Shown: positions 4,651 through 63,353, counted from the first letter of the stretch. The stretch is DNA of 64,000 nucleotides from Escherichia coli (GCF_050920415.1 NZ_CP169309.1); one strand, 5' to 3'. The notes: generated by a model from the letters alone, not told the origin. Numbers and translations are program-made.

Positions 4651-5241
4651 ATGATGGATAACATGCAGACTGAAGCACAACCGACACGGACCCGGATCCT
4701 CAATGCTGCCAGAGAGATTTTTTCAGAAAATGGATTTCACAGTGCCTCGATGAAAGCCATCTGTAAATCCTGCGCCATTAGTCCCGGGACGCTCTATCAC
4801 CATTTCATCTCCAAAGAAGCCTTGATTCAGGCGATTATCTTACAGGACCAGGAGAGGGCGCTGGCCCGTTTCCGGGAACCGATTGAAGGGATTCATTTCG
4901 TTGACTATATGGTCGAGTCTATTGTCTCTCTCACCCATGAGGCCTTTGGGCAACGGGCGCTGGTGGTCGAAATTATGGCGGAAGGGATGCGTAACCCACA
5001 GGTCGCCGCCATGCTTAAAAATAAGCATATGACGATCACGGAATTTGTTGCCCAGCGGATGCGTGATGCCCAGCAAAAAGGCGAGATAAGCCCAGACATC
5101 AACACGGCAATGACTTCACGTTTACTGCTGGATCTGACCTACGGTGTACTGGCCGATATCGAAGCGGAAGATCTGGCGCGTGAAGCGTCGTTTGCTCAGG
5201 GATTACGCGCGATGATTGGCGGTATATTAACCGCATCCTGA
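4651..5241 (+). CDS. uidR: TetR-family repressor of the uid (gus) operon (196 aa)
   Basis: N-terminal TetR HTH (RTRILNAAREIFSENGFHSASMKAICKSCAISPGTLYHHF); located directly upstream of uidA. Confidence 0.88.
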   Translation: MMDNMQTEAQPTRTRILNAAREIFSENGFHSASMKAICKSCAISPGTLYHHFISKEALIQAIILQDQERALARFREPIEGIHFVDYMVESIVSLTHEAFGQRALVVEIMAEGMRNPQVAAMLKNKHMTITEFVAQRMRDAQQKGEISPDINTAMTSRLLLDLTYGVLADIEAEDLAREASFAQGLRAMIGGILTAS

Positions 5242-56137: not shown

Positions 56138-56962
56138 ATGAGCAGCAAGCTTCATGGTCTTGTCTGGGAAGGGTGCGCCTTCACCGGCATGATCTTATCC
56201 AGGGTGGCAGTAATGGCTCGCCTTGCAGACTACAGCAATGACGAAGGTGTGTCATGGCCTGCAGTGGAGACCATTCGTCGTCAGATTGGGGCAAAGAGTG
56301 AATCAACGGTTAAAGCGGCGATAGCGGAACTGGAAAAGAACGGCTGGCTGACGAAGGAGGAGCGTAAGGTCGGTGGGCGTAATGAAAGCAATATCTACCG
56401 CCTTAATGTGGAAAAACTCGAAGCAGCAGCTGAGGCGGCGCGTGAGGCATATAAACCGAAAAGAAAAATTAGCCCGGCAAAAAATGACCCGTTAACAGTT
56501 GACCAGTCAAATATTGCCCCCTCAACGGTTGACCCGTCAAATTTTGATGGATCAACCGTTGGTAAAAAACAGCCGGTTAGGGGGGCGATGGTTGGCCCCG
56601 ATCCGTCAGTATTAAAACCTGATCCGTCAGATAAAAGATCTTTTCGTCCGGAAGCTTCGCAACCGGACCCGCAGACGGCTGAACAGGATTTTTTAACCCG
56701 ACATCCTGATGCGGTTGTGTTTAGTGCAAAAAAACGTCAGTGGGGAACTCAGGAGGATTTGGCATGCGCACAGTGGATCTGGGGGCGAATCGTGAGTCTT
56801 TACGAACAGGCCGCCAGCGATGATGGCGAGATCACCCGACCGAAAGAACCCAACTGGACAGCATGGGCCAATGACGTGCGCATAATGCGGATGCTGGATG
56901 GCAGAACTCACAGACAAATCTGTGAACCGCCCCGGGTTTCCTGGAGAGTGTTTTATCTGTGA
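56138..56962 (+). pseudogene. Phage replication-initiator (O-like, N-terminal winged-HTH) gene, 5' part; interrupted by an IS element after codon 261
   Basis: N-terminus ...AVMARLADYSNDEGVSWPAVETIRRQIGAKSESTVKAAIAELEKNGWL is typical of phage replisome-organiser proteins. The frame ends inside the IS inverted repeat; the original frame resumes at 58235 and stops at 58414. Confidence 0.65.
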
Positions 56963-56964
56963 AC

Positions 56965-57831
56965 TCAGGCTGCCAGATCATTGTTTCCGATGGAAGCATA
57001 ATAAGCTTTTTCTGCTTCTGCCGGAGGAGTATGGCCCAGCCTTCCCAGCAATCGTCGATTGTTATACCAGTCCACCCACGTGAGTGTGGCCAGTTCCACT
57101 TCTGCACGGTTTTTCCAGCTCTTACGGTGTATTACCTCCGCTTTGTAAAGACCATTGATGCTCTCAGCCATCGCGTTGTCATACGAGTCGCCTGTACTCC
57201 CTGTTGATGCCAGCAGTTTTGCTTCTTTTAGTCGCTCCGTATAGGCCAGTGACACATACTGAGAGCCTTTATCGCTGTGATGGATGGTGCCAGACGGACG
57301 ACGGGCCCACAACGCCTGCTCCAGCGCATCCAGCACGAATGTCGTTTCCATAGACGATGAGACCCGCCACCCCACGATGTATCCGGCAAACACATCAATG
57401 ATGAACGCCACATAGACGAAGCCCTGCCATGTGCTGACGTAAGTAAAATCAGCCACCCACAGCTGGTCAGGACGTTCTGCCACGAACTGACGGTTTACGC
57501 GGTCACCTGTGGCAACGGTTTTCCGGCTGACGGTAGTGCGGACCTTTTTACCCCGGAGAACACCGGCAAGTCCCATAACCGCCATGAGGCGCGCCACTGT
57601 ACATCTGGCCACCCTGATTCCTTCCCGTAACAACTGACGCCAGACTTTACGCACACCGTACACCTGATGATTTTCATCGTATACGCGCTGTATCTCTCTC
57701 TTCAGCCAGTCATCGCGCTGCGCACGGGCACTGCGTTTATCAGGATGATGCCGCTGCTGCTGACAATGGTAATACGTTGACGGGGCAATATGCAGTTCAC
57801 TGCATACCGGTCCGACCCCCGTACTGCTCAC
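56965..57831 (-). CDS. IS3-family transposase OrfB (DDE integrase core)
   Basis: DDE core ...LWVADFTYVSTWQGFVYVAFIIDVFAGYIVGW...HHSDKGSQY...DSYDNAMAESINGLYKAE. In this copy the body is in the same frame as orfA rather than the -1 frame. Confidence 0.85.
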   Translation of the reverse strand: MSSTGVGPVCSELHIAPSTYYHCQQQRHHPDKRSARAQRDDWLKREIQRVYDENHQVYGVRKVWRQLLREGIRVARCTVARLMAVMGLAGVLRGKKVRTTVSRKTVATGDRVNRQFVAERPDQLWVADFTYVSTWQGFVYVAFIIDVFAGYIVGWRVSSSMETTFVLDALEQALWARRPSGTIHHSDKGSQYVSLAYTERLKEAKLLASTGSTGDSYDNAMAESINGLYKAEVIHRKSWKNRAEVELATLTWVDWYNNRRLLGRLGHTPPAEAEKAYYASIGNNDLAA

Positions 57832-57852
57832 GCAGCTTATCCAGCAGTGGCA

Positions 57853-58179
57853 TTATTTTTTCCAGAGGCGGTCGAACTCCGCCTTCGCAAAATAAGCGGA
57901 AGCCTGGCGAAGGATATCGTTACTGCGGCGCAGTTCACGATTTTCACGTTCCAGCTCTTTCAGACGCTGACGTTCAGCGGTGGTGAGCCCACCATCACCG
58001 CTCCCGGTATCCCTCTCATGCTGGCGAACCCAGACACGCAGAGTCTCTGGCGTACAGCCAATCTTTGGAGCAATGGAACAAATTGCCGCCCATTGTGAGT
58101 CATATTCGCCCTGACTTTCCAGAACCATACGAACTGCGCGTTGACGGACTTCGGGGGAAAAACGAGTATTTTTAGTCAT
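57853..58179 (-). CDS. IS3-family transposase OrfA (HTH plus leucine zipper), 108 aa
   Basis: [57 protein letters not shown]...; ends WKK-stop at an A-rich run. Confidence 0.85.
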
Positions 58180-58234
58180 CCTGTTTACCTCTTTCTCAGG
58201 AAGTTTAGTCTCCAGGATTTCCGGGGCGGTTCAC

Positions 58235-58454: not shown

Positions 58455-58877
58455 GTGGCAAAAGTTTTTACACAAGAAGAGCGGGAAAAAATTAAGGGAC
58501 AGGTTGTTGCACTCGTACGCCAGAGTGGGCGCGAGACGTTACGACAGCTGGAAGCTAAAACAGGTGCGACAAGATATCTGATTAGCGTTCTTGCCTGGGA
58601 GCTGGTTGCCAGTGGCGATGTATACAACTCTGGCTATGGGTTATTCCCGTCAGAACAGGCTCGTAAGGACTGGCAAAACGCCCGCAAAAAACTATCGAGG
58701 GCAAAGGGGAAGAAACCGTCTATGGTTGATCCGGACCTTATCTGGTCATTACCTGACGGAGAAATTCGTCGCTACGATAGTCGCCATAACATGGTTTGTC
58801 GCGAGTGTCTGGAAAGTGAAGTAATGCAGCGAGTGTTGGCATTTTATCAGGGAAATGTTCGCTATTTATTGAAGTGA
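58455..58877 (+). CDS. Hypothetical prophage protein (140 aa)
   Basis: GTG-start ORF after the replication gene; no recognisable family. Confidence 0.4.
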   Translation: MAKVFTQEEREKIKGQVVALVRQSGRETLRQLEAKTGATRYLISVLAWELVASGDVYNSGYGLFPSEQARKDWQNARKKLSRAKGKKPSMVDPDLIWSLPDGEIRRYDSRHNMVCRECLESEVMQRVLAFYQGNVRYLLK

Positions 58878-59341
58878 CGAGATTAAAGAGCATTAATACA
58901 TATGTGAATTGACATTTCTGTGGCACAGGGCTAGAACTATTCTCATTGTCAGCGTTGTGCCAGAGTCTGATGTTTGTTGTACATTTGGACGAATAGACGG
59001 CGTTGTTAACTTTAAAAATAACACAGGAACACTTTGAGAAAGTGAACAGGCGTATTTATTTTTTGCTGATGAAGGAGAGTAACTTTAATTTGGGTAATTA
59101 GATTGATAATAGGCCAGACGAAAATAACATTCTGGCACACTTTTGGTCGCTACAGTCATTAGTTAATTTTAAGTGATAAATTTTTATCCATAAGTTAACA
59201 CTAGTGTGTCATCTAGCGAAACCGAATCGCTTTAATCCATAACTTAAAGTTGAATCAGTGGGGTAGCAGTAGGTATGCCGGAACTGATAAACTGTGCAGA
59301 AGGCTAAACATTCATTCACTCGTGAGATAGTAGCATAAATT

Positions 59342-59686
59342 ATGCAAAGAATTATTCCTGATAAAAATTGGTGGGAAAAAGAGCGTATTAATCGTAAAGC
59401 ATCATCAAAATGCCCATATGCTAGTTCATACAGATGTCCTCGGTACTATCAGAGTGTAGTTTTGCTCTCAAGCATCAATATGATAGCTGGTATGGCAACT
59501 AGGAAAGAAAAAGAGTTGGGCGAATTTGGGGAAAGAACTAGTTTCTCATATTTATGTGATGAAGAAGTCCCAACAGTTACTACAAAAGAATATGGCGGCC
59601 TTGCATCAGTTAGTAATTTTTGCCCAGAAATATCATTTAGATATTTACACTATTACGCCGATTATATGTGTAAATATGTTGATTAG
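59342..59686 (+). CDS. Hypothetical Cys-rich small protein (114 aa) in the AT-rich cargo island
   Basis: ORF in AT-rich DNA, 70 bp upstream of the HEPN-like gene on the same strand; several Cys in CP/CD contexts; weak RBS. Confidence 0.35.
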   Translation: MQRIIPDKNWWEKERINRKASSKCPYASSYRCPRYYQSVVLLSSINMIAGMATRKEKELGEFGERTSFSYLCDEEVPTVTTKEYGGLASVSNFCPEISFRYLHYYADYMCKYVD

Positions 59687-59755
59687 ATAGATCAGGATAC
59701 TGGCAGGCGTAGTGCGGAAAAAGATAATTTAGAAAATGATTGGAAATATACATGG

Positions 59756-60208
59756 ATGTCAGTCAATCCTAAATTTTATTTAGATTGCGATGTTTTTGAA
59801 AGTGTCAAAAACTTCAATGAAGAATTGGCTAGTGATTACTTAAAGAGATTGCATCCAAATATCATTCAGCAAATAGATAGAATGAATAATTGCTTGGATA
59901 ATAATGACCCTGCGGGTGCACTGCACGCAGCCTCTAATATTCTAGAAACTATGGCGAAGGAAATCACTCAAAACCCGAATGTGGCAAATGAGTCATTGGG
60001 TGGTTTTTTTAAACAGTTCGAAAAAATGTCAAAATTACCTAAGAATCTTATTGATATTGTTAAAGATATTTATGATTTACGCAACAAACTACCTACTGCT
60101 GGACACGGAAGCTTGAACAGGCCTGAATTAACTATGGTAGAAGCTATAACTATTGCGGCAATGACAAAGGCGATTTTAGAAATTGAATATCGAAGCAAAG
60201 CCATCTAA
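59756..60208 (+). CDS. Abi_C / HEPN-like abortive-infection-type protein (150 aa)
   Basis: C-terminal motif DLRNKLPTAGHGSLNRPE fits the R-N-x(n)-H-G signature of Abi_C/HEPN domains; AT-rich codon usage. Confidence 0.4.
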   Translation: MSVNPKFYLDCDVFESVKNFNEELASDYLKRLHPNIIQQIDRMNNCLDNNDPAGALHAASNILETMAKEITQNPNVANESLGGFFKQFEKMSKLPKNLIDIVKDIYDLRNKLPTAGHGSLNRPELTMVEAITIAAMTKAILEIEYRSKAI

Positions 60209-60702
60209 CAAACATAAATTATGTGGTTCAAATTCCCGCTATACTTCTGTGTTATTGCCGCCAGCGTCTACTTATCGCTGTGAGTTCAACGGGGCGATGA
60301 TGCGTTAGAGATCTCTGAATCGATTGAAGTCTAAGGTTGTCAGGGCTGTAACAGTAGCCCTGTGTCATGAAAGGATTGCATATTAATTAACGAAGAACAG
60401 ACCAATAGCATTGATAGTTGTTTTCAAAAATAGACCAATAACAAACACGACTGGCCATCTCATCGATTTTCGACAGTATGCAGAAATGGGCGGGATCCAC
60501 ACGCAGTACCAGCTTGCTAAGATAAACGAAAAGGAGACTTTAACCAGTCAGTGGCTGCATGCTGATGGTGATCCGCTATGGGCCGTAGATGTTGTTTGAT
60601 GTACGCAGAAAGAGACGACGAAGGGCACTATGCCGAAAACTAAATCGGTTTTAGAGATTAACCGCGCTGGTGAGCTGGAGTGATTGACTTTTAGAACGCC
60701 AG

Positions 60703-60746: not shown

Positions 60747-61373
60747 CTATTTTTTGGCAATTAGTGCATGCATCGCCATTTCATGACCTTTTCTGCGAAG
60801 TTTTTTCACACGGGGCTTGAGCCTAGTGAAAGAACTTGGGCTAATTGTCGACTCAGCTTCAACTATATCATTGCGGGGAGCACCCGTTTTAGCATCTTCA
60901 TAGCGGATAAGTATTTTAAACGTGCCCTCATCAACTCCGACACCTTGCAAGTGATGAAGTTTAGATGAAACAGCACCGATTAAATAATCATGAATTCCTT
61001 GCAGGCCCGTTTTACCGATTGGTGAATAGGTATGCAACATATTTGCACCTACAGGAAGGAACTGGCGAAAGTCAGGAACATGCATCTTGTTAACTTCAAC
61101 AGAAGTGTATGCTTTCATGTCAAAAGAAACTCCAGGTTTCCGTGCATTGACTTCTAGCCATTGAGGCAAATCGAGAATATATTTGCTCTCAGCAGTTACT
61201 TCCAGTTTCTTCCTAGACGATAATGTCACGTCCATTACCTGAGCCATATCAGCCATAGAAAGCTCAGCGGCCTTCCGGTTGATGGCTTGTACCCGCTCGC
61301 TCACGTTAGGTCCGAATGCATCGAACAACGAAATTTCAGCAGCTGGTTTAATGGCTTCAGTTTTAACAGACAT
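60747..61373 (-). CDS. Hypothetical protein (208 aa), translationally coupled partner of the P-loop kinase
   Basis: AAGGAG Shine-Dalgarno 5-6 nt upstream of ATG 61371-61373, directly after the kinase stop; no family recognised (track ORF starts at GTG 61379). Confidence 0.5.
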   Translation of the reverse strand: MSVKTEAIKPAAEISLFDAFGPNVSERVQAINRKAAELSMADMAQVMDVTLSSRKKLEVTAESKYILDLPQWLEVNARKPGVSFDMKAYTSVEVNKMHVPDFRQFLPVGANMLHTYSPIGKTGLQGIHDYLIGAVSSKLHHLQGVGVDEGTFKILIRYEDAKTGAPRNDIVEAESTISPSSFTRLKPRVKKLRRKGHEMAMHALIAKK

Positions 61374-61398
61374 ATACACTCCTTAGATAGGACACTTA

Positions 61399-62097
61399 TT
61401 ATACACCTAAATGCGCTAGATCGCTAACGTCTGAATATGGGCAGCTATGGGAGGTAGTCCAGTTTTCAAGGGTCACGTTAGGAGTATAGTCGACCACGAA
61501 CTGACCATCATTTTCAGGATCTTCCCGTCGATGATAAACATTGAGTGTAAATAGGCCTGCATATTTCGCGAGCATATGTTCAATGGTCTCTCTGCTCTTG
61601 AAAAAGTTCGCTTTAAGAACCTCTAACGGAACCTTACGAGAGCGGGCTTGGGCAAAAACCCACGCGTAAGCCGGATCAAAATAGACGTAATTCAGTGCTA
61701 CCTGATAACCAGCCTTCAGGGCCAGATCAAAGTTTCTCTCCGCAATACCTATACTGGAGAAAGTAGAGTCCATAACAATGGGATAGCCTTCAGATAGCGC
61801 TTTTTTGTAGATAAAATCGACCATTCTGGAGGCAGGTCTCTGATAGTCCACAGAGTTCTCTTCATTGTAGTAGGGGAACCACCAGCGAAAATCATCAGCA
61901 TCAATTCGAACAATGTTTGTGATGCCATGTTGTTCTAAAAGACGATTTAAGAGCTCGGTTTTACCTGCAGCAGGCGAACCAGCCATAAACAGGACGTGCT
62001 TGGCATTGGCATTTTTGTTTGCTGTTACGTAACTATAAACGTAAGGGCGAATTGCCTCACCAAACTCAGGCAGTATGGTTTCAAGTTCTTTTTTCAT
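61399..62097 (-). CDS. P-loop kinase of the zeta-toxin / polynucleotide-kinase superfamily (232 aa)
   Basis: Walker A MAGSPAAGKTEL followed by IVRIDADDFR (compare zeta toxin GGQPGSGKTS...VIVIDNDTFK and T4 Pnk GCPGSGKST...NRDDYR), then IVMDSTFSS and ALKAGYQVALNYVYFDP. Confidence 0.55.
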   Translation of the reverse strand: MKKELETILPEFGEAIRPYVYSYVTANKNANAKHVLFMAGSPAAGKTELLNRLLEQHGITNIVRIDADDFRWWFPYYNEENSVDYQRPASRMVDFIYKKALSEGYPIVMDSTFSSIGIAERNFDLALKAGYQVALNYVYFDPAYAWVFAQARSRKVPLEVLKANFFKSRETIEHMLAKYAGLFTLNVYHRREDPENDGQFVVDYTPNVTLENWTTSHSCPYSDVSDLAHLGV

Positions 62098-63122: not shown

Positions 63123-63353
63123 ATGAAGCAGCATAAGGCGATGTTAATCGCCCTGATTGTCATCTGTTTAACTGTCATTGTGACGGCACTGGTAACGAGG
63201 AAAGATCTCTGTGAGGTACGAATCCGAACCAGCCAAACGGAGGTCGCTGTCTTCACAGCTTACGAACCTGAGGAGTTAGAGACCAGGCGAGGGAGAAATC
63301 CCTCGCCACCTCTGATGAGTCAGGCATCCTCAATGCACCCACACTTAACTTGA
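63123..63353 (+). CDS. Hok/Gef-family type I toxin homologue with a 25-codon C-terminal extension (76 codons to the first stop)
   Basis: MKQHKAMLIALIVICLTVIVTALVTRKDLCEVRIRTSQTEVAVFTAYEPEE aligns with Hok (...[24 protein letters not shown]...). After ...EPEE the next codon is TTA (Leu) and the frame runs to 63353. Confidence 0.75.
   Translation: MKQHKAMLIALIVICLTVIVTALVTRKDLCEVRIRTSQTEVAVFTAYEPEELETRRGRNPSPPLMSQASSMHPHLT

Follow-up and report, generated by a model that had tools for sequence, protein, structure and literature searches.

In a 64,000-nucleotide stretch of an Escherichia coli genome (GCF_050920415.1, NZ_CP169309.1; hereafter the window), a lambdoid prophage carries two short open reading frames (ORFs) on the plus strand, one of 114 amino acids (aa) at 59342..59686 and one of 150 aa at 59756..60208. 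A reading made from the sequence alone had placed both ORFs correctly, described the first as Cys-rich (it has 5 Cys, 4.4%) and taken the pair for a two-gene cassette in which a separate small protein precedes an Abi_C/HEPN-like protein. We find that 59342-60208 is one gene, not two.

One gene with an internal stop

The start codons at 59342 and 59756 are spaced 414 = 138 x 3 bases, so both ORFs lie in one frame, and continuous translation yields 288 codons interrupted once, by a TAG. The supposed 70-bp gap is coding sequence: its residues include the family-invariant D117 and D133 and the near-invariant W134 and W138, and the ATG that follows it is a conserved internal methionine, Met139. The gene is the orthologue of the intact 288-aa proteins WP_016569949.1 and WP_096835767.1, and the codon that aligns with the window TAG is GAG in the first (strain 120899, locus L001) and GAA in the second (NCTC9064, locus L003), both encoding Glu115, a residue nearly invariant in the family alignment. 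Set against the intact GAG, the window TAG represents a single G-to-T change.

The 150-aa ORF is an ORF-caller restart at Met139 that lacks a ribosome-binding site. No Shine-Dalgarno sequence lies upstream of its ATG, which scores -3.3 kcal/mol compared with -10.3 kcal/mol at the neighbouring DUF977 gene. Additionally, promoter-like sites for this ORF occur at chance level (6 found, 6.3 expected), and a scan for signals gave no terminator of its own. Coordinates of the gene, its parts and its surroundings are collected in Table 1.

Table 1. The disrupted gene, its modules and motifs, and neighbouring features, in window coordinates
Feature	Position	Strand	Basis or remark
Cargo module, ~1.5 kb: gene, ~390 bp upstream, ~240 bp downstream	58955..60446	+	blastn against L001; low-GC block
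Disrupted gene, 288 codons and terminal stop, one internal TAG	59342..60208	+	same-frame translation
N-terminal module, residues 1-165, compact alpha/beta, no described family, cut at codon 115	59342..59836	+	
Cys24 (TGC), invariant, in CPxAxxxxCPRY motif	59411..59413	+	62 N-module proteins
Cys32 (TGT), invariant	59435..59437	+	62 N-module proteins
Gly63 (GGG) replacing the family Trp; second damaging change, lineage-specific	59528..59530	+	
Cys94 (TGC), invariant, in F-C-P-E motif	59621..59623	+	62 N-module proteins
Premature amber TAG; Glu115 codon, GAG/GAA in intact alleles	59684..59686	+	DNA alignment
Supposed spacer: in-frame codons for N-module residues 116-138	59687..59755	+	69 bp
Cys149 (TGC), invariant, inside the 150-aa ORF, 3' of the stop	59786..59788	+	62 N-module proteins
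C-terminal HEPN module, residues 166-288, Abi_C-like	59837..60205	+	
HEPN Ex3[KR] motif, E202-T-M-A-K206, E and K invariant	59945..59959	+	alignments
Predicted catalytic Arg/His motif, R247-N248-K-L-P-T-A-G-H255-G256, 7-residue spacer	60080..60109	+	
81-bp stretch resembling integrase 3' end and downstream flank	60295..60375		
5' ORF of the split helix-turn-helix (replication O-like) gene	56138..56962		3' end from 58234
IS3-family insertion, ~1.3 kb	~56920..58233		
IS3 ORFs	56965..57831 and 57853..58179	-	
210-aa hypothetical protein	60747..61379	-	
Zeta-toxin-family P-loop kinase	61399..62097	-	
hok landmark	~63123..63275		

An inherited allele

A megablast search with window positions 59100-60400 against 5,426 complete E. 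coli genomes returned 17 records that span the region. In seven of these (99.5-100% identity) the annotation shows two hypothetical proteins, and in ten (~96% identity) a single one. In strain 120899 (L001:6242-7108) the gene is one 867-bp coding sequence (CDS; 96% nucleotide identity), and the more distant copy in NCTC9064 is also an 867-bp CDS (80%); an intact single CDS is present in L001, L003, L015 and L016. The premature stop, E115*, occurs in 5/5 lambdoid-prophage alleles translated (the window and 4 other E. coli genomes), with three further complete genomes of the lambdoid group showing the same pattern of two-ORF annotation, and in 0/4 of the intact alleles checked, three of them in P2-like prophages and one, that of NCTC9064, in an island. 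The stop is common to the lambdoid alleles and not found in the P2-like and NCTC9064 ones, and thus is a real inherited allele with a single origin. It is genuine and not a sequencing error.

Intact alleles are under purifying selection, with a ratio of nonsynonymous to synonymous change (pN/pS) of 0.30 overall and 0.21 in the HEPN part. The window and strain 120899 copies are separated by 10 nonsynonymous and 15 synonymous differences, too few for an estimate of relaxed selection from substitution rates (dN/dS) to be informative. Since the split, the N-terminal module has acquired W63G in the window and MB07081, R34Q (in the CPRY motif) in ARS-C301, and R123L in EC261 and MS 119-7; W63 and R34 are invariant in a 29-sequence alignment and near-invariant in a 62-sequence alignment. 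The HEPN part of the split alleles varies at residue 239 only, and WP_000115768.1, the product of the 150-aa ORF, is identical in three split-allele genomes. The direction of these lineage-specific changes fits decay of the N-terminal module, with small counts.

The split has propagated into reference databases as two proteins: the Prokaryotic Genome Annotation Pipeline (PGAP) assigned WP_ accessions to both fragments, and the UniProt/AlphaFold entry A0A4T8JGB0, an "uncharacterized protein", is the 114-aa N-terminal fragment from E. coli. One of the intact copies (L015) comes from NZ_CP015088.1, a linear record of 29.5 kb that is labelled 'extrachromosomal' and belongs to E. coli O25b:H4; it resembles the genome of a P2-like phage in which many core genes are frameshifted. 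The chromosome of the same strain also has the gene (H14), and the record may be an excised or assembly-duplicated prophage.

A four-cysteine module of no described family

The intact 288-aa protein joins a 165-residue, four-Cys alpha/beta domain to a HEPN domain with Ex3K and R-N...H-G motifs. The 114-aa ORF is the first two-thirds of the former, not a protein of its own. Modelled alone from 62 sequences, residues 1-165 fold as one compact alpha/beta domain that includes a 4-strand sheet (predicted local distance difference test score, pLDDT, 94.7; predicted template modelling score, pTM, 0.88). The stop falls inside this single compact domain, and the 114-aa product is without the helix 115-128, the strand 138-143, the helix 152-164 and Cys149. 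Residues C24, C32, C94, P95, E96 and C149 are invariant, with Pro following 3/4 of the Cys; as Cys149 lies downstream of the stop, the mutation parts it from the other three.

The N module had no Pfam match even at E<=10, no NCBIfam or PADLOC family, and no PHROGs match better than E=0.1, and a structural search of AFDB50 gave uncharacterised proteins of its own family followed by a sharp drop to E>=0.6, with no structural relative. A profile search yielded at least 1,188 clusters at 90% identity, most commonly in a form of ~200 aa; among the best 120 of these clusters, every name given was 'hypothetical' and none had a precomputed Pfam match over the module. The tails attached to it are diverse. 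By Pfam they comprise TIR_2/TIR (5 members), Pycsar-type TIR (2), Schlafen AlbA_2, PLD and canonical Abi_C; ThsB-like, PDC-S35 and PDC-S66 TIR modules also occur, HNH and HTH fusions appear among the AFDB50 structural matches, and 18/66 N-module-only proteins have transmembrane segments.

It is conceivable, at somewhat less than even odds in our judgement, that the N module is a new and widespread domain that senses infection or gates an effector, may bind Zn or an iron-sulphur (Fe-S) cluster, and heads a single-protein immune family with interchangeable effectors. With the same reserve, those effectors might include HEPN RNase, TIR, PLD, HNH and Schlafen domains, membrane tails and a short 'ELKPG...WWLRR' peptide. 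This peptide, of ~45 residues, is a conserved ending of many ~200-aa N-module proteins (E(L/V)KPGxxGIxLNVKxLxxRxxxWWLRR), and bare ~170-aa forms end in '...(R/Q)IGF'; neither has a Pfam match. These endings were noted in the tails of P0109, P0113, P0114, P0132, P0142, P0145, P0161, P0179, P0181 and P0187, and in a second set comprising P0099, P0100, P0103, P0133, P0150 and P0165. Either tail may be an effector, a membrane anchor or a docking peptide.

A HEPN module at the edge of Abi_C

The R-N...H-G peptide that the sequence-only reading pointed to near the C-terminus, DLRNKLPTAGHGSLNRPE, is indeed found at residues 107-124 of the 150-aa ORF. Two motifs define the HEPN superfamily (Anantharaman et al. 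2013, PMC3710099): Rx4-6H, in which a polar residue (N/D/H) follows the R, and Ex3[KR]. By mutagenesis cited in the same paper, R and H are catalytic in RNase L, PrrC and RloC. The C module has the all-alpha bundle fold of HEPN proteins, as a structure check proposed by the earlier reading would have it; it also has an R followed by a polar residue and a downstream His (R247, N248, H255), and the second acidic motif, Ex3[KR]. Across 85 homologs E, K, R, H and G are invariant and N is nearly invariant. The same pattern, with N248 nearly invariant, holds in A5, a clean 28-sequence C-module alignment rebuilt because the A3 profile was contaminated by variable heads; the Ex3K positions are E64/K68 in the 150-aa ORF and E42/K46 in A5. 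The conservation of R, N, H, E and K in these alignments speaks for a catalytic domain.

The proposed likeness to Abi_C holds for the HEPN motifs and less well for membership of the family itself. The profile check returned Abi_C (PF14355) over model positions 26-78 of 83; the 150-aa ORF scored E=1.6e-4 (22.1 bits) and the intact protein E=3.2e-3 (18.0 bits). Abi_C is the sole Pfam family with E<0.01 on either sequence, and a precomputed PF14355.13 match exists for a cluster representative of 97% identity. Most clade members miss the profile, which was matched by 9/29 close relatives at E<=0.1 and by 0/29 at E<=0.001. The tail of P0170, an N-module relative with canonical Abi_C (E=4e-14), aligns motif for motif (IERM..D..ET..K; LRNvhGtGHG versus RNxxPLAGHG) with an R...H spacer of 6 residues, and hhalign of the C module with this tail gave E=1.7e-4 at a probability of 49%. 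A known defence family was sought as the identity of the module in PADLOC, NCBIfam and PHROGs and rejected, as these libraries gave weak matches only (PDC-S32 8e-3, AbiJ 1.2e-2, Cas13a 1.4e-2, Csm6 8.5e-3, phrog_9704 4e-4), converging on AbiJ, Cas13a and Csm6. Profile searches with A2, A3, A4 and A5 found no relative with a solved structure, only chance or low-complexity matches. We therefore place the C module in the HEPN superfamily, where we regard it as a divergent sister group to Abi_C and not as a clean member of that family.

Shuffling of the two modules

When 1.84 billion representatives were searched exhaustively with phmmer, 497 matched, and domains were mapped in the best 150 of these together with 40 proteins from an earlier search (189 distinct proteins). 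Both modules are present in 36/189, all of them single chains, with representatives mostly of ~286-296 aa. The N part alone (residues ~1-160) occurs in 66/189, always N-terminal and followed by tails of 0-390 aa, and the C part alone (residues ~165-286) in 87/189, almost always C-terminal behind varied heads that include AbiJ_NTD4. Thus, a C-terminal HEPN domain stands behind a variable N-terminal domain that is also joined to other conflict-related effectors, and the two modules are shuffled independently. The single-chain family was found in Escherichia, Salmonella, Serratia, Hafnia, Pectobacterium, Vreelandella, Shewanella, Vibrio and Pseudomonas.

A stand-alone HEPN ORF was considered as a natural architecture and rejected, as the candidate P0136 (L024:918-1773, metagenome contig SRR13262724_39888) is a frameshifted full-length copy. 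In this 37%-identical homolog the N module is spread over three frames with an internal stop, which leaves a ~147-aa HEPN ORF from the Met139 equivalent. Its independent breakage indicates that stand-alone ~147-aa HEPN ORFs are remnants, with assembly error possible for that contig; inactivation may repeatedly proceed by disruption of the N module, or P0136 is an assembly artefact. Another candidate, P0057, lies 42 bases from a contig end, has a start set by the ORF caller with no upstream sequence, and is uninformative.

Mobile cargo in defence contexts

The window gene follows the cI/cro-YdaT-HTH-DUF977 block of the prophage and precedes a hok remnant, in surroundings that are AT-rich, as had been noted from the sequence (GC content 0.35-0.39 in the block, 0.45-0.56 in the flanks). 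Window positions 58955-60446 match the L001 copy, which lies in the P2-like gpA-gpQ hotspot, at 95.8% identity, and the prophages around the two copies, lambdoid and P2-like, are unrelated. From this comparison the gene moved between lambdoid and P2-like prophages as a ~1.5-kb low-GC block. The hok landmark itself corresponds to an incomplete Hok/Gef family pseudogene in the 100%-identical MB07081 (L002:10024-10176), and on the strength of that annotation may be a remnant in the window too.

The location had been read as typical of phage-borne defence cargo, and the intact copies bear this out. Three E. coli P2-like prophages carry the intact gene between DinI-like/gpA and the portal gene, at the P2 gpA-gpQ defence hotspot as defined by Rousset et al. 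(PMC9122126). In strain 120899 the gene adjoins Septu PtuA/PtuB, and in the NCTC9064 island it stands between Lamassu LmuA/LmuB and Gabija GajA/GajB. A Pseudomonas homolog has NACHT and KAP NTPase proteins as neighbours, and in Vibrio cholerae an integron cassette of ~1 kb (L009, contig ABTUDW010000023.1), flanked by V. cholerae repeats (VCR) at L009:3841-3970 and 4855-4984, holds the homolog P0020 (286 aa) and no other gene. The array around P0020 is a chromosomal integron of at least seven VCR/attC repeats of ~130 bp each. The gene was also found on seven plasmids, and tblastn gave no match in 50,697 phage records.

No conserved partner gene was shared across six contexts by BLASTP of neighbours and gene tables; a recurring ~210-aa downstream gene on the opposite strand was rejected as a partner, as it is not homologous between loci. 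In the contexts compared there was no adjacent nucleotidyltransferase or other antitoxin gene, and a search of window 58800-60700 for an RNA antitoxin or structured RNA, with Rfam scanned at E<=1, gave no Rfam match below E 0.36 and no tandem repeats. The intact gene is stand-alone cargo in defence-hotspot contexts.

Just downstream of the gene, an 81-bp stretch (Table 1) is ~91% identical to the 3' end and downstream flank of a 'site-specific integrase' gene in ~575 E. coli genomes and is probably a shared junction of a cargo slot. In HKUOPY1 (L017), that small integrase gene is followed by a DUF4145 protein, another HEPN-type family.

Proposed function and fate of the window copy

We consider it likely that the locus holds a 288-aa, single-protein abortive-infection (Abi) system of the AbiJ type that travels with prophages as mobile cargo and that a nonsense mutation has inactivated here. 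By analogy with that type and with HepS, the intact protein would be an abortive-infection RNase. Its N domain would keep the nuclease inactive until a phage-derived cue is recognised and, having sensed infection, would free HEPN activity via oligomerisation. The HEPN domains of two or more subunits would then build a composite Arg/His site that cuts RNA (tRNA, rRNA or mRNA) without a metal, so that translation stops and the infection is aborted. In the lambdoid lineage, a G-to-T change made Glu115 an amber codon inside the N domain. With the stop within that domain and no ribosome-binding site for the 150-aa ORF, the window copy is most likely a decaying, non-functional pseudogene.

Several observations weigh against this account. 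The split allele is kept at 99.5-100% identity in at least eight sequences (the window and seven complete genomes), and the 150-aa ORF has suffered no further disruption, the same pattern as would be expected if the fragment kept some function. Post-split substitutions (3 versus 1) are too few for statistics, and the window-versus-L001 pN/pS of 0.16 is not in itself a sign of relaxed selection. On the side of mechanism, the R-to-H spacer is 7 residues (R-NKLPTAG-H) throughout the clade and so exceeds the Rx4-6H of the superfamily, the Abi_C match is marginal (1/28 diverse C modules at E<=0.001), and model confidence is lowest in the loop bearing the catalytic His (253-256). Additionally, defence, RNase activity and sensing are all inferred for the family. 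A literature search by protein accession found no paper that mentions the accessions, and there is no indication that Rousset et al. (PMC9122126) included it in their tests of P2-hotspot systems.

The persistence of the split allele is also what would be seen if it kept partial function, either through a 150-aa HEPN fragment that is made by re-initiation at Met139 and acts alone, possibly with the 114-aa fragment as its partner or inhibitor, or through some full-length protein made by low-level amber read-through or a suppressor tRNA of the host. The 150-aa ORF is intact, almost unchanged and keeps every HEPN catalytic residue, and the 69 nucleotides from stop to ATG could in principle permit re-initiation. 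Nonetheless we think this unlikely: ATG 59756 has no Shine-Dalgarno sequence, the cut runs through one compact domain so that neither fragment holds a complete N module, and the 150-aa product would bear a 27-residue orphan piece of it. W63G and R34Q, at invariant or near-invariant residues, argue that the N part escaped selection, and, Glu115 being nearly invariant, the protein may not tolerate Gln or whatever else a suppressor puts there. Nor was a naturally split homolog found, the other ~147-aa ORF with upstream sequence being frameshifted.

That the small Cys-rich protein is the antitoxin or regulator of a separate Abi_C/HEPN toxin is scarcely credible, even though PGAP annotates two CDSs in split-allele genomes and small partners are frequent beside HEPN toxins (PMC3710099). 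The two ORFs share one frame with one mutated codon between them, and this frame and codon comparison refutes a cassette; the supposed spacer encodes conserved residues, the other relatives with both modules are all single polypeptides, and the four invariant Cys of one domain would be divided 3+1 between the products. We also regard as improbable, and more so than partial function, that the intact HEPN protein is not anti-phage and is instead an addiction or stress toxin, an RNA-processing factor or a non-catalytic binding HEPN. The invariant R, N, H, E and K favour catalysis, no adjacent nucleotidyltransferase, other antitoxin gene or RNA repeats accompany the gene, its loci are defence hotspots and islands adjoining Septu, Lamassu and Gabija, and the other partners of its N module are classic immune effectors (TIR, PLD, HNH, Schlafen, transmembrane tails).

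Relation to known systems

The AbiJ-like kind to which we assign the intact protein has been known since 2013; its N domain and HEPN subclade are uncatalogued. It resembles AbiJ and Abi_C (PF14355) proteins in being a single polypeptide with a C-terminal HEPN domain that carries R-N...H-G and Ex3K, in having a variable N-terminal domain shuffled onto TIR, PLD and nuclease effectors, and in the carriage of its gene on prophages, islands and integron cassettes. The domains AbiJ-NTD1-5 also occur on TIR, PLD, restriction endonuclease (REase) and kinase effectors, and have been proposed to interact with phage components (PMC3710099). The protein differs in its marginal Pfam match, which most clade members lack, in its spacer (7 residues versus 6 in P0170), and in an N module with four invariant Cys that matches no Pfam AbiJ_NTD model, AbiJ_NTD4 having been detected in other proteins. 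AbiJ-NTD1/2 are set apart by description, being mostly alpha-helical (PMC3710099) in contrast to the 4-strand sheet here, with their coverage by Pfam models uncertain. As the PADLOC AbiJ model reaches E=0.012 only, standard defence finders would miss the protein.

Identity with 'Taranis' of Vibrio integrons (bioRxiv 10.1101/2024.07.02.601686) was considered and rejected, since that system has an AbiJ_NTD5-like N-terminus and the 288-aa protein does not. The Vibrio protein P0020 might correspond to 'Esos' (bioRxiv 10.1101/2024.07.02.601686). HepS (PDB 9oik), a single-protein HEPN Abi system of the Salmonella prophage Gifsy-1, cleaves tRNAs in the anticodon loop once a phage tail-tip protein has activated it (PMC13043305); it has no detectable sequence similarity to the 288-aa protein. 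HEPN-MNT and archaeal/bacterial HEPN-T toxins (2hsb, 1ufb, 1wol, 5yep, 7ae2, 8xdj) are stand-alone domains of ~120-140 aa, the HEPN-MNT toxins being paired with a nucleotidyltransferase antitoxin gene, whereas the 288-aa gene has no MNT neighbour and its HEPN domain is fused to a sensor-type module. AbiV (PMC13064643, PDB 9bj5) is a HEPN RNase with an RNA antitoxin, forming a type III toxin-antitoxin system, and no such repeats or RNA-family match were found here; AbiV is without the canonical H (PMC3710099).

The two 'hypothetical proteins' that a standard pipeline assigns in seven or more complete E. coli genomes are therefore one broken gene, whose intact form is a plausible one-protein abortive-infection system barely seen by PADLOC models and Pfam. 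If the N domain is a sensor, its cue and a metal or Fe-S cluster held by its Cys would add an input module to bacterial immunity, and the E. coli 288-aa HEPN form would then be a readily testable member of a family uncatalogued by defence-finder tools. The locus also shows a defence gene moving between unrelated P2-like and lambdoid prophages and then decaying. Defence pseudogenes have been reported to be rare in P2/P4 hotspots (bioRxiv 10.64898/2026.02.27.708500).

Neighbouring features

Upstream of the cargo block, an IS3-family insertion with orfA (108 aa) and orfB (288 aa) splits a prophage helix-turn-helix (replication O-like) gene (Table 1). The closest genomes are without this element and are 100% identical on both sides of it (89% coverage, in two pieces).

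Downstream, the 210-aa hypothetical protein and the zeta-toxin-family P-loop kinase are encoded convergently with the split gene. No PADLOC model matched either of them; the pair may be a toxin-antitoxin or defence pair.

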